Shown one piece after another: positions 9,531 to 55,176 of a stretch of DNA of 64,000 nt (within the stretch, counting starts at the first letter, position 1; the number at the start of each line of letters is the position of its first letter). Source of the DNA: a bacterium (GTDB lineage: Bacteria > UBA8248). The notes under the pieces were generated by a model. The model was not told the origin of the DNA. It made no database searches and saw only the letters and a list, made by a program, of their open reading frames with translations. A program made the position numbers and the translations under genes. The DNA is taken from contig CBDATS010000002.1 in the NCBI GenBank assembly GCA_965200245.1, positions 54,552 through 118,551 on the forward strand. The letters run 5' to 3'.

Positions 9531-10619
9531 TCACACCGCCTCCGGCAAAAGCGGCAACAGGTATTTCCCGAAATTCCTGGCCTCGGCGTCATGCGGCCAG
9601 CCGGAAAGGATGAACGTGGTCGCGCCCACGTCGATGTATTCGCGTATGGCGTCAGCCACCACCTCGGGGCTGCCGACAAGCATGGTACCCGCCCCCTGAC
9701 GCACGAGATTGATGCCTGAAAAAAGTGCGGGACCGTGCCAGAGTTTCCCCTCCGCCGTCATTGCGTTCATGCGCTGCTGGGAGACGGACTCCACCTTTCC
9801 GGCCACTTGGCCAGTGACCGAAGAACTCTCCCCGTAGGACGCCGTGCCCGCGATGATGTCCTCGGCTTCTTCCTTGGCCTGCGCGTCGTCCTCACGCACG
9901 AGGATATGAAAACGCACGCCGAGCTTGAGATCGCGGCCATGCTCCTCGCGCGCCATCTGTTGTACTTCCGCAAATTCTTCGGCGATCTGCCAGGGGGGTT
10001 CACCCCATTTGAGGAAAACGTCGGCGTGCTTGGCAATGACCTTTTTCGCCGCAGGCGAGCTTCCGCCGAAATAAAGGGGTGGCCCTCCCGGTCGCGCGGC
10101 ACCAGGAAAGACGAAGCCATCTTCCACCTGATAGTGCTCCCCCTCGTAGTTCACCCGGCCATCATACGCCCAGAAAGCGCGAACGATTTCCAGGAACTCA
10201 TCGGCCCGCTCGTAACGCTCGTCGTGATCCGCCCAGTCCCCGTAGCGGCGCGCGTCCACCGAGGATCCGCCGGGCACAACGTTTACCGTCAGCCTCCCGC
10301 CCGAGATAAAATCAAGTGTGTTCGCCTGCTGCACGGCAAAGGTCGGCGTGGTGAGGCCGGGGCGGATTGCAACACAGAACTTGATGCGCTCGGTTTCTCG
10401 CGCAATCACGGAGGCCAGGAGCCAGCCGTCCGAACACGAGGTATTGCAGGGGATGAGCATGTTCGTGAGGCCGCTTGCCTCGGCCGTCTGCGCGACATGG
10501 ACGAGGTAGTCGATCTCGGGCGGTATCTCCACCTCTCCCGTACCGAGGCGGGTGGCGTCTCCCCGCTGGTTCGAGGGCAGATACCAAGCGTATTCGATGG
10601 GCTGCTTGCCGTTTTTCAT
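9531..10619 (-). CDS. LLM-class flavin-dependent monooxygenase (SsuD-like)
   Basis: 362 aa; luciferase-like monooxygenase pattern (FISGGRLTVNVVPGG, DERYERADEFLEI). Confidence 0.8.
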   Translation of the reverse strand: MKNGKQPIEYAWYLPSNQRGDATRLGTGEVEIPPEIDYLVHVAQTAEASGLTNMLIPCNTSCSDGWLLASVIARETERIKFCVAIRPGLTTPTFAVQQANTLDFISGGRLTVNVVPGGSSVDARRYGDWADHDERYERADEFLEIVRAFWAYDGRVNYEGEHYQVEDGFVFPGAARPGGPPLYFGGSSPAAKKVIAKHADVFLKWGEPPWQIAEEFAEVQQMAREEHGRDLKLGVRFHILVREDDAQAKEEAEDIIAGTASYGESSSVTGQVAGKVESVSQQRMNAMTAEGKLWHGPALFSGINLVRQGAGTMLVGSPEVVADAIREYIDVGATTFILSGWPHDAEARNFGKYLLPLLPEAV

Positions 10620-22720: not shown

Positions 22721-23000
22721 AGCTCACCTAGGTGAATAAAAAGCGAATATACCGCAGTATGGGCAAGCCATGCAAGACAAAAATCGACAAAACCAAGGCG
22801 CGTGGCTACAATCCCGATATCAGGAACCCCCGTACAACGGAGGCAGAACCCGGCGACCCCGAGACGCTGCTGGGCGAATTGTCTCCTGCCGGGGCGGAGG
22901 TAGCCACACTGCGCGAGCGGCTGAAGAAGACGCTGGCGGAGACGTTGTTACGATAACATCCAGAAGGCGCGGCACTGGCCGTTCAGCGGGAGACTCGGAT

Positions 23001-23312
23001 ATGCACGCCGCAATCGCTGACAAGCGGGAAGAGCTGGTCGAACTCTGCCGGCGTCACGGCGTGATCCGGCTGGAGGTTTTTGGTTCCGCCGCCCGTGGTT
23101 CGGATTTCGACCCGGAGACCAGCGACGCCGATTTTCTCGTGGAATTTGGCCCCACGGACGGTCCCCGGACGCTCGGCCAGTATTTCGACTTCAGGGATGC
23201 CTTGCGCCATGCGCTTGGCCGCCCAGTCGATCTGGTTGAAGCGGGCGTGATCCGCAATCCATACCTGCGCGCTGCCATCGACAAGCCGCGTGAGCTTGTC
23301 TATGCATCGTGA
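23001..23312 (+). CDS. MNT-type nucleotidyltransferase antitoxin
   Basis: 103 aa; FGSAARGSDFDPETSDADFLVEF minimal nucleotidyltransferase motif. Confidence 0.8.
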   Translation: MHAAIADKREELVELCRRHGVIRLEVFGSAARGSDFDPETSDADFLVEFGPTDGPRTLGQYFDFRDALRHALGRPVDLVEAGVIRNPYLRAAIDKPRELVYAS

Positions 23313-23547
23313 CCTTCGCGTCCTGTTGATGGATATCGAACAGGCTGGTGCCGACATCAAGCGCTTTACGGAAGGCGCGACATTCGGCGGCTATCTCGAA
23401 GACACGATGATGCAGGCGGCGGTCGAGCGCAAGTTCGAGATCATCGGCATGCGAAATCATCTGAGGCGGGCAACTCCGACATCCCCTCAAGAAGACGATT
23501 CCACTCCGGTTCATCAATCAGCCGGGGCGGTATCTGCGAACGGATGA
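23302..23547 (+). pseudogene. HEPN (DUF86) toxin relic, 3' half lost
   Basis: MHRDLRVLLMDIEQAGADIKRFTEG...AAVERKFEIIG matches the DUF86 N-terminus. Similarity stops near 23445 and no Rx4H motif follows. Confidence 0.6.
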
Positions 23548-23651
23548 ACGTGTCGAGAACAGAGGCAAAACCGTCATATCCCGTACGTTTCATCTGGATT
23601 TCCCGACCCCACAATCCGGCGCGGAAAAACCGGAAGGAGCCCGAGGTTTCG

Positions 23652-23912
23652 CTATGCCCCCCAATAACCATCACCATAGCTACCGCGAGCGTCTCCCAAC
23701 TGTTCCTCAGTGAGCCGGGACGCAGGCGGAAGGACGAGATAGCCGTTCTCGGCGTCGTCTTCCATCACATGCAGGTTGAAATTCTCCGGCATCGTTATCC
23801 CGAACTCCTCGGATACCACGGCCTTCGGTTCAGACATCAGACGGGCACGGAACTCCTCACTGTCGCCTGCCTTCCCGATCAGGTGCTCGTGCATCTCGGT
23901 AACGGATTTCAT
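23652..23912 (-). CDS. NHLP-leader RiPP precursor peptide
   Basis: 86 aa; LIGKAGDSEEFRARLMSEPKAVVSEEFGITMPENFNLHVMEDDAENGYLVLPP matches the nitrile-hydratase-like leader; C-terminal tail ...EEQLGDARG-SYGDGYWGA; GAGGAGAGGAG RBS. Confidence 0.8.
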   Translation of the reverse strand: MKSVTEMHEHLIGKAGDSEEFRARLMSEPKAVVSEEFGITMPENFNLHVMEDDAENGYLVLPPASRLTEEQLGDARGSYGDGYWGA

Positions 23913-23986
23913 CCTGGTCTCCTCTCCTCGATAAATGTGTTTGAGTGGATACCCCCGATGCTTTTTTGCATTGTTGTCATGAACAG

Positions 23987-24014
23987 ATTATAGAATACCC
24001 CGACGGGGAAGCAA
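23987..24014 (-). promoter_or_regulatory. Sigma70-like promoter of the NHLP precursor
   Basis: On the minus strand: TTGCTT, 16-nt spacer, TATAAT, about 70 nt upstream of the ATG. Confidence 0.55.
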
Positions 24015-24281: not shown

Positions 24282-24584
24282 ATGGCATGTTCCCGTATCG
24301 CTGGCCCCTGCCCTGCTGAACCGACTGGATCGGGAAGATCGGCTCGCGGGCGGTCATTCCGGGAATCAAACACGAGAGTGTCGGGTTCCGCCGATTTGCT
24401 GATGCAATTCCGGCGCGACCCTGGAAATCTTCCTGCTGATTTCGAGGATTTCGTCTTGCGACCGTCTCGTTTCATGTTGCGGGTAATGGCCTGCGCGATG
24501 AGCAGGGCGATGGTGTTGGAGAAACTCGGTTGGGGGACTGCCGAGCGCTTGATGCGGATGCAGGCAAGTTACGATTTTGCGTAA
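24282..24584 (+). pseudogene. HigA-family antitoxin relic
   Basis: The C-terminus AMVLEKLGWGTAERLMRMQASYDFA matches the HigA HTH tail. The upstream HTH segment is shortened and there is no partner toxin. Confidence 0.45.
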
Positions 24585-24734: not shown

Positions 24735-26875
24735 ATGCATCTCGAGAACATTGATTTCCTGCAATTGCTCAACGGTGATGTCCAGTATGTCGTACCTCGC
24801 TGGCAACGTCGCTACTGTTGGGGACAAGCCGACATTGAGCGGCTTGTCGATGACCTGATTGCGGTCGCTGCCGCGGGAGACGACGCCACTCACTATGGGG
24901 GCACCCTCCTCACTTTCCCGGAACCGCGGGCGGCGGGTGTTCTGAGGACCATTCGTGTCGTCGACGGCCAGCAGAGGCTCACAACGGTGAGCATCCTGCT
25001 CGCATGCATTGCAACAAATCTCGAACGAGATGGCTCATGTCGTGATTGGACAGCAGAAATCATTCGCGAGCGGCGATTGACCAATCCCCATATGGAGTCA
25101 GAGAAACGCCTCAAATTGCAGCTGCAAACCAGAGACGAGGATGAATATCGCCGTGGTCTCGATGGTAGTCCCGAAGGAACCGGTGCGGTTGCTCAGGCTT
25201 GGCGGATTGCGCGGCGCTTGGTCGATCTGCACGATACGGATTCGCTACTACTGGGCCTTGAACGGCTCCAGGTGGTCAGCATCGGCCTTGACACCACGGA
25301 CGACCCGCAACAGATATTTGAGAGTTTGAACGCCACGGGTCGTCCGCTCACGGAAAGCGAGAAAGTCAAGAACTGGCTCTTGCTCGGACTGCCGGAAAAA
25401 CAGCAGCGGGAACTTCACGACGAATATTGGCGTAGCATTGAAAAAGCGCTCGGCGCTGAACACACGACCGAACCCATCGACACATTCCTTAGGGATGTCA
25501 TGCGCTGGCGCACAGGCGAGGTCCATGGCGGCAACAAGACCTATGAACAGCTTCGACGCTGGGCGCTGAGGCAAGGGGACGGGAAGAATCGTGCCGAAAT
25601 TTGCCGCGATCTGGCATGTCTCGCGAAACTGTATGGAATTCTGACCGGCACAGCGGCGAAATTCTCCGACAAGAAAGTTGACAAGGAGATCAGGCATCTG
25701 CGGGCGTTGGGACTGGATGTCCACCGTCCGCTGACGTTGCGGCTGCTCCATGAGACTTCCGATACCGATTCGACATCTGTGGCGAACTCCGATCTGGCGA
25801 AAACCCTCGCAGGAATTGGAGCTTGGATCACGCGCCTATGGCTGGCCGATAGGCCAACGGCCGGACTGAACAAGGCCATGGCGGAACTTGCCTATAGTGC
25901 TGCTGGACCCGGCGAGAGAGAGGATTATACGGAGTATTGGCTCGATCAGATACGCAGCCTTCGAAACCAACGCATCGGTGTTCCAAGAGACGAAGAAGTT
26001 CGCGAAGGCATGCGTATGCGTCCAGCCTATGGGGGTGGAGTTACTCAATCCACATTTGCCGTTCTTTGCGAACTGATGGAAGCGGAACATCCTGACGAGG
26101 CGCCGGCACGCTGTCGTCTGACAGTCGAGCATGTGATGCCGCAGAAGCTCACGAACGAATGGAAACTCTATCTCGGAGAAAACGCTGAGGAAATACATGA
26201 GCGGTATTGCCATCGGTTCGCGAACTAACCCTGAGCGGAGACATTTCCAACGCCAGCATGGGTGCAAATACCTTCGCTTCTAAACAGGAGATATACCGCA
26301 ACAGTTCGATTGGAATGACGAGAAGACTCGCTGAAGAGAATGCATGGAATGAGGCAACTCTCGAACGACGCGCCGAAGACATCGCTCGACGGGCTCTCGA
26401 CCGCTGGCCGTGGTCCGACCATGGAACTCAGGCAGACGCAAATTGGTCAGATGGCGCATCCGTGACGGAGCGATTCTGGAGAATTTTCAAGGAAATCACG
26501 GGTGGTGTTCCGGGACAGAAGGAAACCTGGCGTCACCGAAATCTGTGGACGAAACCCTGCAATTCGTCAGGTGACTGTATCGGCATTTACGTCGGCATTG
26601 AGTATGAGGTAGCCTGGCTCTACGTCTTGGCGGGTGATCAGCAATCGGCAAACAAGACGGTACGAAGTCGGAAACTCTCGCGACTTATTTGCGACTCAAT
26701 GTCGGGTCAGGAGATTTCCGGCGACCTGGAGAAAGAAAGCGAGTCCGGGAGAACTGTGTGCGTCAAGCGGCACTGGCCCACCGATGATGAAGATGAATGG
26801 CCGGAAACTGCGAGATGGATCAAGGCTCAATACGACAGACTGCAGGGGATTTTAGCGAATTCATCCATCGAATGA
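24735..26875 (+). pseudogene. GmrSD-like type IV restriction enzyme (DUF262 + DUF1524 + C-terminal DUF4268-like tail), frameshifted
   Basis: DUF262 motif VVDGQQRLTT; HNH-like TVEHVMPQ...HERYCHRFAN then TAA at 26226-26228. The next frame continues LTLSGDISNASMGANTF. One missing nucleotide restores HRFANLTLSG. Confidence 0.75.
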
Positions 26876-35008: not shown

Positions 35009-36291
35009 ACATGCCTCTGCTTCTGCTCGGCTCCCTAGCCGTCTTCCTCTTCATCCGCGTGCCTGTGGGCGTCTCTCTTGGCCTGGCCTCCATCCTCGTC
35101 TACTACGCCACCGGAGAGCGCTTCGAGAGTCTGGCACTTTCCTATTACGACGGGCTGGACAAGTTCCCCTTTATCGCCGTGCCCATGTTCCTGCTTGCGG
35201 GCGCGCTCATGGAAAAAGGCGGTATCAGCAAGCGCCTGATATCGGTGGCGGACTGCTTCGTGGGCAACGTGCAGGGCGGCCTCGCCCACGTCACCATACT
35301 CGCTTGCATGCTTTTCTCCGCCATCTCAGGGTCGGGACCCGCCACGACGGCCGCCGTGGGCGGACTCATGATCCCCACCATGCTCAGGCGTCAGTATGAC
35401 AGGAACTATTCGGGCGCAGTCTCCGCCTGCGGGGGGACGCTCGGTATCCTCATCCCGCCGAGCATCACCTTGATCGTCTATGGCGTCAGCGCCGATCAGT
35501 CCGTCACGCGGCTGTTCATCGCGGGTTTTCTGCCCGGCATCCTGCTGGGCTGCATGCTGATGTGCTGCGCCACAATCCTGGCACGCTTCATGACGGTGGA
35601 ATCGGATTCCGAACCCTTCTCCGCCGCGCGCACGCTCACCACCATCTGGGGGTCCCGCTGGGCGCTCCTGGCACCGGTCGTCATCATCGGCGGCATCTAC
35701 GGGGGCTTCGTGACACCGACGGAGAGTGCCGTCATCGCCGTGCTCTATGGCTGGGTGATCGGCACGTTCGTCTACAGGGAGCTCGACTGGAAAAGGACAC
35801 GCGAGTGCCTGGAAATCGCGGCCCTCGTCACCGGAACCATCGCCATCATCTGGGGAGCGTCGCTCGCGTTCGGCGAACTCATCACCATCCACCGGATTCC
35901 CCAGTTGGTGACGGCTTTCATCGAGAGTGTGACGCGATCGCCGTTTCTGATCCTCATGCTCATCAGCCTGTTTCTCACCTTCGTCGGAATGTGGCTGAAC
36001 ACCATGGCACAGGTCATCATCCTCACACCGATGTTCCTGCCCGTCATCCAGGCGGTGGGCATCGACCCCATCCACTTCGGCATCGTTTTCGTGGTGAACT
36101 GCGAAATCGGCTACCTCACGCCGCCTCTGGGCACGAGCCTGTTCGTGGCAATGGGCATCGCGGACACGACGCTGGGCGCGATCGCCAAGGCTGTCCTGCC
36201 TTTCATCGCGACCATGTTCCTGTGCGTGATCATCCTCTCGTATTTCCCCAGCATCTCCCTCGTTCTGCCGAACCTGATCATCGGCAGATGA
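35005..36291 (+). CDS. TRAP transporter large permease (DctM-type)
   Basis: 428 aa, polytopic; DctM-like motifs. Confidence 0.85.
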   Translation: MNMPLLLLGSLAVFLFIRVPVGVSLGLASILVYYATGERFESLALSYYDGLDKFPFIAVPMFLLAGALMEKGGISKRLISVADCFVGNVQGGLAHVTILACMLFSAISGSGPATTAAVGGLMIPTMLRRQYDRNYSGAVSACGGTLGILIPPSITLIVYGVSADQSVTRLFIAGFLPGILLGCMLMCCATILARFMTVESDSEPFSAARTLTTIWGSRWALLAPVVIIGGIYGGFVTPTESAVIAVLYGWVIGTFVYRELDWKRTRECLEIAALVTGTIAIIWGASLAFGELITIHRIPQLVTAFIESVTRSPFLILMLISLFLTFVGMWLNTMAQVIILTPMFLPVIQAVGIDPIHFGIVFVVNCEIGYLTPPLGTSLFVAMGIADTTLGAIAKAVLPFIATMFLCVIILSYFPSISLVLPNLIIGR

Positions 36292-36320
36292 GGGAGCGAA
36301 CAAAAAAAAGGAGGCAAGAC

Positions 36321-37334
36321 ATGCGACATCTGAAACAATGCTTCACGGTGATGGTGGGCATTATCCTCGCCACCGGGCTCCTCGTCTGCGCTGTTCCGCA
36401 AGCCGAGGCCGCCAAGTACGTGATGAAGTTCGCCCACAACAATCCGCCAAAACCGCAGCTTCTCTATCAGGCCATCGCACTGACAATGCAGAAGAACCTG
36501 CAGGTCTACTCCAAGGGGGACATCGACATCCAGATATTCCCCTCCTCACAACTCGGCAAGGATCGCGTTGCCGCCAAGAAACTCCAACTCGGCTCGGTGC
36601 AAATGCAGGTCGTGGCGTCGAACAACATCACGGCCTTCGACAGGCGGCTTGATATCTTCACCCTGCCCTTCATGTTCGGTAGCTTCAAAGGCGCCGTGAA
36701 GGTCTTCAACAGCGACATCGGCAAGAACATCGGCGAGAATTTCCGCAAGAAATCAGGCATCCGGGTGCTGGGCTTCGTCGCCACGGGGTTCCGGAACATG
36801 ATGAACAGCAAACACCCCATCATGAAGCCTGCGGATCTCGGCGACCTGCGGATGCGGATCGCGAAAAATCCCATCATGGTGCAGACCTATAAGGCGCTCG
36901 GCGGCAGCACCATCGGCATGGCACCGACAGAACTGTTCAGCGCGCTCAGCACCAAGACGGTGGACGGCCACGACGGCGGATCGAGCTGGGCGTGGGCGCA
37001 GAAACTCTACGAGGTGCAGAAATACCTCTCCATCACCCGGCACCAACTCGTGGCGGGCGCGCTCATCATGAACGACAAATATTACGCCAAGCTCCCCAAA
37101 CATTTGCAAAAAGCCGTGCAGATGGCCGCGCGCGACACCATCGCATGGGCGAACACCTACGCGGAGGAGAACGAACAGGACATCATGAAGGGTTTCGCAC
37201 AGAAGGGGCTCACGATCGCCACACCCGATCTCAAGCCTTTCCGTGAAGCGGTGAAGCCCGTGCACAAGATGTTCGCCGACAAGGTGGGCGGCATCGACCT
37301 CATCAACCGCATTCTGAAGATGCAGGAAGGTTAG
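36321..37334 (+). CDS. TRAP transporter substrate-binding protein (DctP-type)
   Basis: Start at MRHLKQC with an AAGGAGG RBS and a signal peptide ending AEAAKY; the long upstream ORF extension is rejected. Confidence 0.85.
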   Translation: MRHLKQCFTVMVGIILATGLLVCAVPQAEAAKYVMKFAHNNPPKPQLLYQAIALTMQKNLQVYSKGDIDIQIFPSSQLGKDRVAAKKLQLGSVQMQVVASNNITAFDRRLDIFTLPFMFGSFKGAVKVFNSDIGKNIGENFRKKSGIRVLGFVATGFRNMMNSKHPIMKPADLGDLRMRIAKNPIMVQTYKALGGSTIGMAPTELFSALSTKTVDGHDGGSSWAWAQKLYEVQKYLSITRHQLVAGALIMNDKYYAKLPKHLQKAVQMAARDTIAWANTYAEENEQDIMKGFAQKGLTIATPDLKPFREAVKPVHKMFADKVGGIDLINRILKMQEG

Positions 37335-42548: not shown

Positions 42549-42634
42549 AGGTTTCCCGGCATCCCCGGAGGGCACGAAACCCTCCGGGAGCCGGTGAAGC
42601 GCTTGTTATCGGTCTCTGGTGAGAAAGGGTGGCG

Positions 42635-45241
42635 ATGCGGAAGGTTTTTGATTTTCTCTGGGAATGGCTCCGGTTCATCTTCGCTCCGGAATCGGCCACC
42701 CGCAGGGACATCGAACCGGGCTTTCAGAAGGAAAACCTGCCCGTTTGCGTTTTTTTCTCCGGTCTTCTTCTCGTTTATATCCTTTTTCTGGCTGGCAGGA
42801 CATACAATCTCTACCTTCCCTACGAGATATCCTGGGACTGGCAGGAAGTCGAGTTTCCGGCTCTCGATGCTTGGCTATACGCTCTCATCTGGCTCTACGT
42901 CTCAGGTTTGTGCGTTCTGCCGAAAGCGACGACCCTGCTCTCCTCGTTCGTGTTCGCTTCCTATTTTCTATATGGCGCCGCGAACAAGGCACCTGTGGAT
43001 CTCGGGCTGGGCTTCGGCGAGGTCATCGTCTACGCCCTTTCCCCCTTTCTCACGGAAGGAATGGAAAAATCCCTCTCGGCGATATGGGAGACGTTTCACT
43101 TTCCGGGTCTGGCCATTTATGCGTTTCATTTCTATCTCCCCCTGTACGTTATCTTCACTGCCATCCTGACGTTCATCTTCTGTCCGGCGCGGGCGGGCGC
43201 TCCAATGCGTCGACCCTCTGTCGTGGACCTCATCCTGTGTGCAGGCGTGGTCATCTTCACGGTGGAATACATCATGAACTTCGCCGACCGGGGAGACCGG
43301 GCGGGTCTCGTCCTCTGGACGGACGTTGCCATGGGCACAATCGCCGTCATCGTATCGATAGAAATGTGTCGCCGGGTGCTGGGCTGGGTACTCCCGCTTT
43401 TGGGCCTCTTTTTCTTCTACTACGCCATGTACGGCAACCATTTTCCGGGGCGACTCCTGCACAAGGGGTTTTCCTACAACGAGGTCGTGAACTTCATATA
43501 CGGGACGTCCGGCATTTTCGGCGTCATCGCGAACGTCTATGCGAGCTATGTGTTCCTGTTCATCCTGTTCGGCGTCTTCCTGGAAAAAACGAAGGTCGGT
43601 GACGTGTTCATCGACCTCTCCTACGCCCTGGTGGGCCGTCTGCGCGGAGGCGCCGCCAAGGCGTCTGTCGTATCGAGTGGCATGGTGGGATCGGTGGTGG
43701 GAAGCGGGGCGGCGAACATCGTCATCACAGGCACCTTCACGATCCCGCTCATGAAGCGCGCGGGCTACAAGGCCCATTACGCAGGAGCTGTCGAGGCAGT
43801 CTCCTCCATCGGGGGACACCTGCTGCCGCCGATCATGGGCTCGGCGGCGTTCCTCGTGGCGGCGTTCACCGAGACGGATTACGGCTGGATTGCGCTCATA
43901 TCACTCGTGCCCGCATTGCTGTACTACTTCTCGGTCTACATGTCGGTACACTTTCGATCGGGGCTGGATGGCATCCACGGCCTCTCGAAAGAGGAATTAC
44001 CCGAACTTTTGCCACTTCTGAAAAAAGAGGGTTACCTGCTGCTGCCGGTGGTGCTGCTCATCTTCCGGCTCATCATCGGCCGTTCGCCCTTCGATGCGGC
44101 ACTCTGGTCCATCGTCCTGGCAATGGTTCTGGGATTCCTGCGCGAGGACACCCGCCTGCTGGCCCTGCCGCCGGTTCTCGCGCGTCTGGTGGGCAAGCCC
44201 GCGTGGAGCACCAGAAACGACAGACTCGAATTTGAGGCCGCAAAACACCACAAGAAACTCATGGAATCGGGCAAAAGCCTGGAAGATGCCGATGCAGAGG
44301 CGGAAGCCTATCTCGAAGCGGCGAAGGCCGAACCGTCCGGTAATCCGATCATGGAGAACTGGCCACTGCTCGCCGGGCTGGGGCTGTTCATCGTGCTCCC
44401 GGCGGCGGGGCATTCGTTCGCCGAGTCGATCTTCTGGTCGGTGCTCGCGGCAATTATCCTGTCTTCGCCCCGCGTTCTGGACGGACTGGAACGAGGCGCC
44501 GTCAACTCGCTCATCATCGGCGTGACGGCGGGCGTGATGGGCATCGTGCTCGCAGGCGTCTCCATGCCAGGTCTCGGCATCAAGTTCTCCTCCATCATCC
44601 TGGGCTACGCCTCCATCATCGACAACGCCTTCGGTATCACTGGAACAGCGCTCCCGGTGGCGATTCTGCTCTGCACTGTCGCCAGCTATATTATGGGCAT
44701 GGGCATGACGATCACAGCGAGCTACGTGCTGCTCTCGATCCTCGCCGTGCCCGCGCTGGTGGAACTCGGCGTTCCGCTCCTGAGCGCGCACCTGATGATC
44801 CTCTGGCTGAGTCAGGACGCCTCGCTCACGCCGCCCTTCGCGCTTGGCGCGTTCATCGCTGCGGGCGTGGCGGGGGCAGACCCGATGCGCACAGGTTTCG
44901 CCTCTCTCAAACTCGGCAAGGCGCTCTACATCGTCCCCTTCCTGATGGCATACACCCCGATCAACATGCCCCCCGGATCGGAGTGGTTCAACATCCTCGT
45001 CGTCTGGGTAACCGGATTCATGGGCTTTTTCTGCACCTCGGCGTCGCTCGAAGGTTACATGCGCAGAAAGCTCGAAATCTGGGAACGTGTCGTCTTTGCC
45101 GTGGCGGGCGGCCTGCTGTTCTTCTACATCCCGTGGATGAAGATAACAGGCGCCGTCATCATGGCCATCATGGTCGCCATCCAGTTCATGAGCGCGCAAG
45201 ACGGGGGCGGAGCCTCCGCAAGTCCCGCAGCCTCTTCGTAA
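42635..45241 (+). CDS. TRAP transporter fused permease (TAXI-associated)
   Basis: About 870 aa, highly hydrophobic fused small and large permease; ATG at 42635 (alternative GTG at 42629). Confidence 0.85.
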   Translation: MRKVFDFLWEWLRFIFAPESATRRDIEPGFQKENLPVCVFFSGLLLVYILFLAGRTYNLYLPYEISWDWQEVEFPALDAWLYALIWLYVSGLCVLPKATTLLSSFVFASYFLYGAANKAPVDLGLGFGEVIVYALSPFLTEGMEKSLSAIWETFHFPGLAIYAFHFYLPLYVIFTAILTFIFCPARAGAPMRRPSVVDLILCAGVVIFTVEYIMNFADRGDRAGLVLWTDVAMGTIAVIVSIEMCRRVLGWVLPLLGLFFFYYAMYGNHFPGRLLHKGFSYNEVVNFIYGTSGIFGVIANVYASYVFLFILFGVFLEKTKVGDVFIDLSYALVGRLRGGAAKASVVSSGMVGSVVGSGAANIVITGTFTIPLMKRAGYKAHYAGAVEAVSSIGGHLLPPIMGSAAFLVAAFTETDYGWIALISLVPALLYYFSVYMSVHFRSGLDGIHGLSKEELPELLPLLKKEGYLLLPVVLLIFRLIIGRSPFDAALWSIVLAMVLGFLREDTRLLALPPVLARLVGKPAWSTRNDRLEFEAAKHHKKLMESGKSLEDADAEAEAYLEAAKAEPSGNPIMENWPLLAGLGLFIVLPAAGHSFAESIFWSVLAAIILSSPRVLDGLERGAVNSLIIGVTAGVMGIVLAGVSMPGLGIKFSSIILGYASIIDNAFGITGTALPVAILLCTVASYIMGMGMTITASYVLLSILAVPALVELGVPLLSAHLMILWLSQDASLTPPFALGAFIAAGVAGADPMRTGFASLKLGKALYIVPFLMAYTPINMPPGSEWFNILVVWVTGFMGFFCTSASLEGYMRRKLEIWERVVFAVAGGLLFFYIPWMKITGAVIMAIMVAIQFMSAQDGGGASASPAASS

Positions 45242-53727: not shown

Positions 53728-53931
53728 AATAGTACAGGTTCGACTCCACGCGATTTTTATACAGGCGAAAATCTTTCCTCCTCCCGTATTATGATAATGT
53801 TCCACTTCATCATATAAAGCATAAATATATGTTAATAAGTGCATTACATGGATGTCAAAAAATATCCTTTACTTTCGTATTATTTTTGTATACCTTTTTC
53901 TCTCACGTCAATTCACACAGGGAGAATAACC

Positions 53932-55176
53932 ATGGTAACGGAAAAAATCCTCCACAAGCTGACCATTCTCGGCGGACAATCCTTCGACGACAGGGAGGGC
54001 CCGCCCGGGGTGCGGAAACATCCCGTATTTCGCCGAAAATTCCTGGCCTCGGATACCCCTGCGATATTTCCCGTCCCTTTCAAGGGTGGACGCATCATGC
54101 CACTTCTCTCCACCATGATGACCAACGCCTGTAGCTACGACTGCCACTACTGTCCAATGCGGGCCTCGCGCAACATGCCGCGCCACTCCTTCAGCCCCGA
54201 TGAGTTGGCCGATACCTTCATGGCCCTCAAGAAGAGAAACCGTGCAGAGGGGCTGTTCCTCACCAGCGGTATTCCGGGCAGCGGCGTCAGGGGCGCGGAC
54301 AGGATGATAGCGACGGCGGAAATTCTGCGCTTCAAGTATCGTTTCAGCGGCTACATTCACCTGAAAATGCTGCCCGGTGCAGAGGATTCCCAGCTCAGCC
54401 GTGCCGCACAGATAGCCACGAGGCTCTCCGTAAACCTCGAAGCCGCCACCCAGCGAGGACTTCACGCCTTAGCACCCGAGAAAAGGCTGGAAACCGACCT
54501 GAAACGCGCCCTTCGCTATGTGGGGAGGATGGCGCGCGAGTCATTTTTCGAGAGAACAGGCCTCATCAAAGGCGGCGTGACGACACAGTTCATCGTGGGC
54601 GCAAGCGGGGAGAGCGATATGGACGTCCTGACTGCCTCCCATTCCCTCCAGAAGCAGGGTCTCTTGCGCCATACTCATTTCAGTGCCTTCAAGCCCGTGG
54701 AGGACACCCCGATGGACGGCGTGCCCTCAGTCTCCAAGACGCGCGAGCACAGACTGTATCAGGCGGAGCACCTCCTTCGCGAATATGAATTCGGGCTGGA
54801 TGAGATTCCCGCTTCAAATGGCAATCTGGCGCTTGATGAAGACCCCAAAGCGATGTGGGCGAGGCAGAACCTCTCACAGTTCCCGGTGGAGATCATGACT
54901 GCGGACCCCAGAATGCTCATGCGCGTACCGGGCATCGGACCCACTTGGGCGAAACGCCTGGTAGAGGTCAGGAAAAAAGCGCACATACGCGATCTCAGGG
55001 ATTTGATGCGCCTGGGCCGCATCCGCAAATCGGCGGCTGGCTGGCTCATGCTACACGGCAAGCGTCTCGGCCCCGAACCCGTACTGGCCACGCAGATGAG
55101 CCTCGGACTGCAGCACAGGGGCAAAAGGTGGGTTCATCCTTCGATGCGAATGCTGCCACCGTGTTCCTTTCGTTGA
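53932..55176 (+). CDS. Radical SAM protein of the putative DNA modification/repair type (HhH C-terminus)
   Basis: CSYDCHYC cluster motif, a long TIM half-barrel, and C-terminal VPGIGPTWAKRLV helix-hairpin-helix; start at MVTEKIL with a GGGAGA RBS. Confidence 0.75.
   Translation: MVTEKILHKLTILGGQSFDDREGPPGVRKHPVFRRKFLASDTPAIFPVPFKGGRIMPLLSTMMTNACSYDCHYCPMRASRNMPRHSFSPDELADTFMALKKRNRAEGLFLTSGIPGSGVRGADRMIATAEILRFKYRFSGYIHLKMLPGAEDSQLSRAAQIATRLSVNLEAATQRGLHALAPEKRLETDLKRALRYVGRMARESFFERTGLIKGGVTTQFIVGASGESDMDVLTASHSLQKQGLLRHTHFSAFKPVEDTPMDGVPSVSKTREHRLYQAEHLLREYEFGLDEIPASNGNLALDEDPKAMWARQNLSQFPVEIMTADPRMLMRVPGIGPTWAKRLVEVRKKAHIRDLRDLMRLGRIRKSAAGWLMLHGKRLGPEPVLATQMSLGLQHRGKRWVHPSMRMLPPCSFR

Follow-up and report, generated by a model that had tools for sequence, protein, structure and literature searches.

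Described peptide prenylation systems provide the closest parallels to the locus reported here. Among peptides that are made by ribosomes and modified after translation (RiPPs), MppC of Moorena producens is a prenyltransferase of the ABBA (alpha-beta-beta-alpha) type whose geranylation of a core Trp requires a Nif11 leader and the L(X)4L motif within it, and cyanobactin prenyltransferases work without a leader, on cores that have been excised or macrocyclised (PMC12715784). [quoted passage not shown] The locus under study lies in a stretch of 64,000 nucleotides from a bacterium of the lineage UBA8248 (contig CBDATS010000002.1, positions 54,552 to 118,551), referred to here as the window, and comprises the gene of an NHLP-type precursor (23652..23912, minus strand) and, behind it, a short stub that resembles the N-terminus of a family of prenyltransferase-like (PT-like) proteins with a predicted PT-barrel fold. 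That the locus pairs a precursor with a truncated PT-barrel partner is very likely in our judgement, and the window probably holds what is left of a RiPP gene cluster whose type is widespread and apparently undescribed, and in which the precursor is intact, the maturase truncated and the exporter missing.

As in the MppE/MppC pair, the system combines a long, structured leader of the NHase/Nif11 class that carries an L(X)4L motif with a soluble PT-barrel enzyme encoded in the cluster, and the proposed target is likewise the indole of a Trp in a short core, for which the leader would be needed. The leader here is NHLP (TIGR03793) whereas that of MppE is Nif11. A lanthionine synthetase is absent and Cys is missing from the cores, so that the substrate would be linear. 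The partner family is, moreover, without detectable sequence similarity to annotated prenyltransferases, the precursors stand in hypervariable tandem arrays, and prenylation is here proposed from structural models. With PalX/PalQ and ComX/ComQ the system shares an NHLP-type precursor and a short core with a conserved, often C-terminal Trp. PalQ and ComQ, however, have an all-helical isoprenoid-synthase fold whereas the partner here is a PT-barrel protein; none of the 116 family members that were scanned matches the polyprenyl-synthase Pfam model, and a PalQ-type partner was rejected as having the wrong fold. The pal locus also consists of three genes that form a quorum-sensing-like unit and include one for a histidine kinase, in contrast to the NHLP export genes and arrays of variable cores seen here. 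The cyanobactin F-family (PagF, KgpF, LimF, PatF, DciF), which modifies the side chains of Tyr, Trp, His or Arg in short peptides, likewise consists of RiPP PT-barrel enzymes and is found among the structural matches described below, but its clusters contain the proteases PatA/PatG, which are absent here.

Two further NHLP-associated systems bear comparison. Spliceotide precursors (PlpA with PlpX/PlpY) have NHLP or Nif11 leaders, and the X-Y-G motif can be read once in the precursor of the window, but here a radical S-adenosylmethionine (SAM) partner is lacking and relatives do not conserve the motif. The srp proteusins (SrpE/SrpI), as far as bioRxiv 10.1101/2023.06.09.544420 and PMC10858898 relay the work of Nguyen et al. 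2021, have Cys-rich LCCCW cores that are modified by a YcaO enzyme and a flavin brominase. Like them, the precursors considered here are spread over phyla of sponge-type microbiomes, carry LTEEQL in the leader and often end in a Trp that may serve as the handle for modification, whereas their cores are poor in Cys and their partner is PT-like. Because the defining features of each of these types were tested for and found lacking, the precursor appears to be neither spliceotide, srp-type nor PalX-type. The precedents of MppC and PalX/PalQ make leader-guided Trp prenylation plausible here by analogy. A full-text search of incomplete coverage, which may have missed an earlier description, found no NHLP and PT-barrel system with linear Trp cores described; relative to known RiPP prenylation by ABBA enzymes, the enzyme clade, the leader class, the linear hypervariable substrates and the organisation in arrays are apparently new.

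The precursor gene and the truncated gene behind it

The precursor open reading frame (ORF) encodes 86 aa and runs on the minus strand from an ATG at 23912 to a TAG stop (23652..23912), with a sequence identical to that in an earlier note on this DNA, which had recognized an NHLP leader from the letters and had suggested a profile search. This assignment holds, as the NCBIfam model TIGR03793 (NHLP leader) matches residues 5-73 with 61.6 bits (curated cut-off 50.9; E = 4.8e-17), Pfam NHase_alpha matches with 34.7 bits (gathering score 27.2), and the solved NHLP precursor PDB 8TB1 aligns with residues 4-78 (E = 1.4e-7). A truncated nitrile hydratase, which had been raised as the reading that would undo the assignment, is ruled out because the relatives are likewise short, at 83-94 aa with the exception of P0004, which reaches 123 aa through a longer C-terminal tail. 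Judged by its sequence, the ORF is thus a genuine NHLP-leader RiPP precursor.

The predicted leader (residues 1-78; 23679..23912, minus strand) includes the L(X)4L motif as LTEEQL at residues 67-72 and a double-glycine-type site at G77-S78, opposite which the 8TB1 alignment ends with the GG of 8TB1. LTEEQL, together with the double-glycine position of the relatives and of 8TB1, sets the cleavage behind G77-S78, so that the core most likely consists of the eight residues YGDGYWGA (residues 79-86; 23655..23678, minus strand, followed by the stop codon at 23652..23654), the register being that of the family alignment. Among 253 related precursors the corresponding site reads GG in 217, GA in 13 and GS in 5. 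The short, Cys-free core of the earlier note therefore stands in both of these properties but probably not in its length, as S78 of the proposed nine residues SYGDGYWGA would belong to the double-glycine position. The predicted core contains Trp, as do 95% of the family cores.

On the same strand and 58 nt past the precursor stop, a second ORF (MKRTGYDGFASVLDTFIRSQIPPRLIDEPEWNRLLEGMSELPAS) starts with an ATG at 23593 and ends after 50 codons (23444..23593; TGA at 23441..23443), and family profiles identify it as the 5′ stub of the cognate PT-barrel enzyme gene. The homology spans 23462..23590, equivalent to profile positions 15-56 of 354, and in an hmmsearch of all 1,652 six-frame ORF segments of the window with the family profile the stub was the sole match (E = 2.2e-5); a broader family profile gave E = 1.3e-6 for the stub and E > 1.6 for the next best segment. 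The best 30 blastp matches of the stub among the 964 neighbour ORFs of related loci are all N-termini of the PT-like family, and the cut ORF accordingly corresponds to the first ~45 codons of the family's cognate enzyme gene. Used on its own as the query of a homology search, the 50-aa stub gave no match. Past 23462, six non-homologous codons lead in frame to the TGA.

On the plus strand, from the other side and outside the RiPP system, the 5′ fragment of a HepT-like toxin gene (23290..23448; Pfam PF01934, residues 16-53, profile positions 1-38 of 120) runs towards the stub. The HepT match ends at 23448 and the PT-like homology at 23462, so that two convergent genes are each left without the 3′ part where they join, within 23449..23461, through rearrangement or deletion, much as the earlier note had proposed when it described the downstream ORF as cut at a rearrangement junction. 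Repeats flanking the junction, which might indicate a mobile element or a misjoin, amount to short matches at chance level. The HepT fragment is preceded by a nucleotidyltransferase gene (22770..23312, plus strand; PF01909, the MNT-type antitoxin partner), and the region 22770..23548 (plus strand), in which the HepT profile is matched over roughly its first third, is a disabled toxin-antitoxin pair at the junction.

The earlier note had also remarked that no maturase, peptidase or exporter is adjacent to the precursor, and this extends to the whole window, which contains no intact gene of any of these kinds. There is in the window no second copy of the leader, no further PT-like gene, no exporter and no HlyD, and the exporter profiles of the relatives find nothing in it at E <= 1. 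The NHLP export genes that are co-located with the precursors in relatives (ABC transporters of TIGR03796/03797 and HlyD of TIGR03794) are thus lacking.

Related loci and the partner family

A search of 5.8 billion proteins for the closest relatives of the precursor found 12, of which eight are 68-85% identical to it; their leaders hardly vary, but their short cores are unrelated (YYDWDDAF, QYDPFGGRIP, YWGDVPNHV, FYHEDGTPWV and EWVWH in the close paralogs). A scan of metagenome contigs with the alignment of this close subfamily found nothing. With the family alignment, a scan of 185,579 species-representative genomes gave 70 loci with precursors of 37-53% identity, nearly all of them in metagenome-assembled genomes (MAGs) of Dehalococcoidia/Chloroflexota, Alpha- and Gammaproteobacteria, Vicinamibacterales, Binatia, Spirochaetia, Nitrospirales and Latescibacterota, a mixture of lineages that we take, from the names of some isolates, to be typical of sponge and marine microbiomes. 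These loci hold 277 leader matches, representing 253 distinct precursors with 197 distinct cores, and tandem arrays are common (18 loci with at least 5 precursors, and a maximum of 17 in locus L027). The cores have a median length of 11-14 aa (range 2-31), and their most constant feature is Trp, which is present in 95% of the 253 cores against ~15% expected at typical Trp frequency, is C-terminal in 56%, and makes up ~10% of core residues as opposed to 0.1% of leader residues. YG, by comparison, occurs in 3-5% of the cores and Cys in 4-13%, and at the place of S-Y-G in the precursor the closest paralogs read AYY, GQY, AYW, AFY and GEW. By this comparison of sequences the conserved core feature is Trp and not Tyr-Gly, with Tyr in the place of Trp in a few very short, Tyr-only cores.

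Such short cores are found in alphaproteobacterial loci (L001/L071, L003, L005, L006, L026, L054, L055), where YY, AYY, IYY, GGYY, EADYY and QFW are predicted after GG/GA. In L071 the precursor (9704-9976) is flanked by genes for a cytochrome P450, two CMAS-like methyltransferases, a PT-like protein, HlyD and a C39-ABC transporter. Cores of 2-5 residues would be among the smallest of RiPPs and suggest a product akin to a small molecule. Identical cores (HHTGLWG, GSHKGYYW, VFIWGYV, LSVIGTWN and IAMIIW) recur across MAGs and even phyla, with wholly different cores next to them in the arrays, in loci L002, L004, L008, L018, L036 and L039 of Dehalococcoidia and L023 of Nitrospirales, and this recurrence suggests horizontal transfer together with selection on particular peptides.

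When the ORFs of the 70 loci with a length of 120 aa or more, 964 in all, were clustered, the recurrent neighbours included the ABC protein of the NHLP exporter, in 40 loci (TIGR03797, 739.9 bits), and a protein of ~350-375 aa without Pfam or NCBIfam match, in 37. HlyD adaptors (TIGR03794-like) and C39-peptidase ABC transporters recur as well. By family profile the second protein, the PT-like protein, is encoded in 53 of the 70 loci, with a median distance of 150 bp to the precursor closest to it and on the strand of the precursor in 74 of 92 scored cases, and it is the sole candidate modifying enzyme that recurs across most loci. The family-wide order of linkage is therefore precursor, PT-barrel protein, and NHLP export and cleavage genes. 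The comparison with relatives suggested in the earlier note thus brought out a PT-barrel gene and an NHLP exporter, in relatives of 37-53% identity, and no recurrent radical SAM gene; the CxxxCxxC motif is present in 2 of the 964 neighbour ORFs, both small singletons.

Other genes near the precursors appear to be optional tailoring genes, among them small SAM methyltransferases in 8 loci (e.g. L004:4742-5449) and JmjC/cupin-type oxygenases in 7 (e.g. L065:5148-6803). ‘Cupin-4 + NHLP’ gene cluster families have been noted in sponge metagenomes (PMC9426513), with which the cupins of the arrays fit. In 3 loci a cytokinin-dehydrogenase-like flavin adenine dinucleotide (FAD) enzyme, with FAD_binding_4 and a cytokinin-binding domain, is encoded near the arrays (e.g. 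L010:3174-4544). Enzymes of the cytokinin-dehydrogenase family oxidise N-isopentenyl groups, and this neighbour is a circumstantial hint of prenyl chemistry.

The PT-like family is large: among 1.84 billion representatives of clusters at 50% identity, searched exhaustively by profile, 2,280 match at E <= 1e-3 and 1,226 at E <= 1e-10. Independent AlphaFold2 models were obtained for P0071 (31-sequence alignment; mean predicted local distance difference test score, pLDDT, 88.6; predicted template-modelling score, pTM, 0.88) and for P0200, which is 26% identical to P0071 (78 sequences; pLDDT 93.9, pTM 0.92). Both show five consecutive alpha-alpha-beta-beta units, forming a ten-stranded antiparallel barrel. 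In Foldseek searches against the PDB, the best 50 matches of P0071 and the best 45 of P0200 are all ABBA/PT-barrel aromatic prenyltransferases, with E down to 8e-6 and a probability of 1.00 for the significant matches; these include NphB/Orf2, EpzP, CloQ, AmbP1/3, TleC, CymD, DMATS1, FgaPT2, AnaPT, CdpNPT, NotF and FunA as well as the RiPP enzymes PagF, PatF, KgpF, LimF and DciF. In 116 members of 23-54% identity to P0071, ten residues are conserved in at least 90% (E47, D58, E111, D113, R183, R189, H304, K306, K328 and Y330), and nearly all of them sit on barrel strands of the P0071 model, a pattern that would be expected of a lumen that binds diphosphate and stabilises a cation. Going by these models, the partner is a structural member of the PT-barrel superfamily that lies outside every curated sequence model.

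Proposed pathway and competing explanations

We propose that the PT-barrel enzyme would bind the structured NHLP leader together with the L(X)4L motif that it carries and would alkylate, by prenylation, the indole of the core Trp (or Tyr in Tyr-only cores), after which the C39 transporter would cleave behind GG/GS and export a lipidated short peptide. Prenylation of Trp/Tyr is the chemistry we favour for the family from its modelled fold, with a confidence that is moderate. The further proposal that the PT-barrel proteins constitute an undescribed family of leader-dependent peptide-modifying enzymes, which would define a new and very widespread RiPP class of marine and sponge-type microbiomes, is put forward tentatively, at somewhat less than even confidence. 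Such a class would be characterized by linear, Trp-anchored, hypervariable short peptides whose cores can be as small as 2-5 residues, with as many as 17 precursor genes in an array, and subject to prenylation, or a related electrophilic alkylation or cyclisation of indole, before secretion, and the window would hold a decayed copy of one of its clusters. Because the enzyme is truncated and an exporter is lacking, the pathway presumably cannot run in cis in the window, and the precursor would be either a decaying relic or served in trans, a possibility that follows from the intact paralog P0071 (340 aa). The P0071 gene is not within the window.

Several points weigh against this account. The stub's similarity to the family is short (42 profile positions, 20-24 bits), and the gene order for the precursor's own group is inferred from relatives of 37-53% identity and not from the closest ones, P0002-P0009, at 70-85%. 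In 17 of the 70 loci there is no PT-like gene within 10 kb. None of the 116 diverse PT-like members matches any Pfam family, three members scanned against NCBIfam match none of its families (cyanobactin prenyltransferase models included), and the sequence profiles of the family find only chance matches among PDB chains (E >= 0.49). The Foldseek matches have TM-scores of 0.35-0.60 at ~10-14% identity, and the fold is the whole basis on which the family is assigned to the prenyltransferases. PT-barrel proteins may also be inactive, as the example of PatF illustrates. The placement of P0071 on the contig of the window, outside the window itself, is probable and by inference only, from the equal length (334,985 bp) recorded for its contig and for that of the precursor, both proteins being singletons from the same sources.

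These points bear most directly on the idea that the partner has the PT-barrel fold but is no prenyltransferase, serving instead as a scaffold or chaperone that binds the leader, as a relic without activity in the manner of PatF, or as an enzyme for another electrophile or another Trp chemistry. The cluster remnant in the window would then be of the same kind, but from a system whose modification may be a different one. The missing sequence-level link to any prenyltransferase model and the moderate TM-scores would agree with this, as would the unusually many conserved acidic residues (E47, D58, E111, D113) and the presence in some clusters of other tailoring enzymes (P450, methyltransferases, JmjC, FAD oxidase) that could do the real chemistry. 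Every significant structural match is, however, a prenyltransferase, the conserved polar, basic and aromatic residues at alternate strand positions of the model look like those of an active site rather than of a scaffold, no other candidate modifying enzyme recurs in most loci, and the near-universal core Trp fits indole prenylation; we therefore hold a non-prenyltransferase partner to be unlikely. The earlier note had instead read S-Y-G as the X-Y-G motif of radical SAM spliceases (PlpX/PlpY), which excise tyramine there, or had considered the precursor a substrate of a cyclophane-forming radical SAM/SPASM enzyme encoded elsewhere. The core region does contain S-Y-G and is rich in aromatics, and some splicease substrates use NHLP leaders. 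The motif is not conserved, though, being rare among the 253 related cores and missing from the closest paralogs, and no radical SAM gene recurs in the 70 loci. The sole radical SAM gene of the window (53839..55176, plus strand) combines Radical_SAM with a C-terminal helix-hairpin-helix domain (HHH_3), is without SPASM and lies 30 kb from the precursor, and the gene attached downstream of the precursor is a PT-barrel stub. With neither a radical SAM context nor a conserved motif, splicease and cyclophane chemistry were both rejected, and we give them next to no weight.

A precursor of the sponge srp type, with azoline formation by YcaO and bromination of a C-terminal Trp by SrpI, is suggested by the leader motif LTEEQL, which equals the reported srp recognition sequence (bioRxiv 10.1101/2023.06.09.544420), and by the many relatives that end in Trp. 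Against the LCCCW-type cores of srp (bioRxiv 10.1101/2023.06.09.544420), the predicted core has no Cys, Ser or Thr for azolines and its Trp is not C-terminal; no YcaO or halogenase is found among the annotated recurrent neighbour clusters, and the attached gene is PT-like. This chemistry was rejected for want of Cys in the core, and we consider it very improbable. Of a different nature is the suggestion that the junction is an artefact of MAG assembly, so that a full-length enzyme gene and perhaps exporters in reality follow the precursor and nothing is orphaned. The 19-29 kb region is indeed a sharp compositional mosaic with blocks of 43% to 72% GC, several genes in it are broken (HepT truncated, a GmrSD-type gene split), and the relatives, too, are nearly all from MAGs. 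Broken toxin-antitoxin and restriction genes would, however, equally fit a decaying genomic island, the stub ends in frame after a few non-homologous codons, no repeat that could cause a misjoin is found at the joint, and the source contig is recorded at 334,985 bp. An assembly artefact is accordingly improbable, and the mosaic with its broken genes fits a decaying genomic island, a chimeric assembly being less likely.

Under the preferred reading, that of a decayed cluster with a PT-barrel maturase, the copy in the window is by itself a broken relic of modest interest, and its value lies in pointing to a large, unannotated enzyme family with a tight linkage to NHLP precursors across eight bacterial lineages or more. 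Were its members leader-guided Trp prenyltransferases, the arrays would amount to naturally diversified libraries of lipidated short peptides, and the family would offer a new scaffold for leader-directed peptide lipidation, which has so far been documented only in lanthipeptides with a Nif11 leader (MppC) and with the unrelated fold of ComQ/PalQ. For some of the ‘cryptic NHLP’ clusters that have been reported as abundant and highly expressed in sponge microbiomes, it would also provide a concrete chemistry that can be put to the test.

Upstream elements and the wider window

The precursor gene looks intact and, from its upstream sequence, expressible. A Shine-Dalgarno-like GAGGAGAGGAGA lies 5 nt upstream of the ATG (23918..23929, minus strand), in agreement with the ribosome-binding site mentioned in the earlier note. 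The promoter claimed there as near-consensus is borne out in its letters (23988..24014, minus strand; -35 TTGCTT at 24014..24009, a 16-nt spacer and -10 TATAAT at 23993..23988) and in its -10 box, which matches the consensus in 6 of 6 positions, but the -35 box matches in 3 of 6 and a consensus promoter scan returned no site by the criteria that it applies. Between the precursor and the enzyme gene there is a weak terminator-like hairpin with a 5-bp stem and a T-run (23630..23644, minus strand), a possible attenuator; the terminator scan is itself weak, with 2 sites against 0.7 expected. Upstream of the precursor promoter, an ORF of 100 aa (24282..24584, plus strand) has no Pfam match and may be another gene fragment, its C-terminus (…LEKLGWGTAERLMRMQASYDFA) resembling by eye the end of a HigA-type antitoxin.

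In the mosaic of the 19-29 kb region, GC contents are ~43-46% at 20.4-21.2 kb, 63-70% at 21.2-22.6 kb (a Y-family polymerase gene), 51-58% around the precursor, 65-72% at 27.2-28.2 kb (a 344-aa ORF without Pfam match) and 44-48% after 28.2 kb. The gene of the GmrSD-type restriction endonuclease is split into two overlapping ORFs (24735..26228 and 26207..26875, plus strand) between which the GmrSD_C profile breaks at 82/83, and it is probably a frameshifted pseudogene. Further off, the radical SAM gene at 53839..55176 resembles the DNA-repair or DNA-modification type and not a peptide maturase. Genes of a tripartite ATP-independent periplasmic (TRAP) transporter, DctP and DctM, lie in plus-strand ORFs with long N-terminal extensions (35562..37334 and 42629..45241), DctP beginning at residue 291 of 590, and here the true starts are probably located downstream, or the ORFs are fused through high GC.

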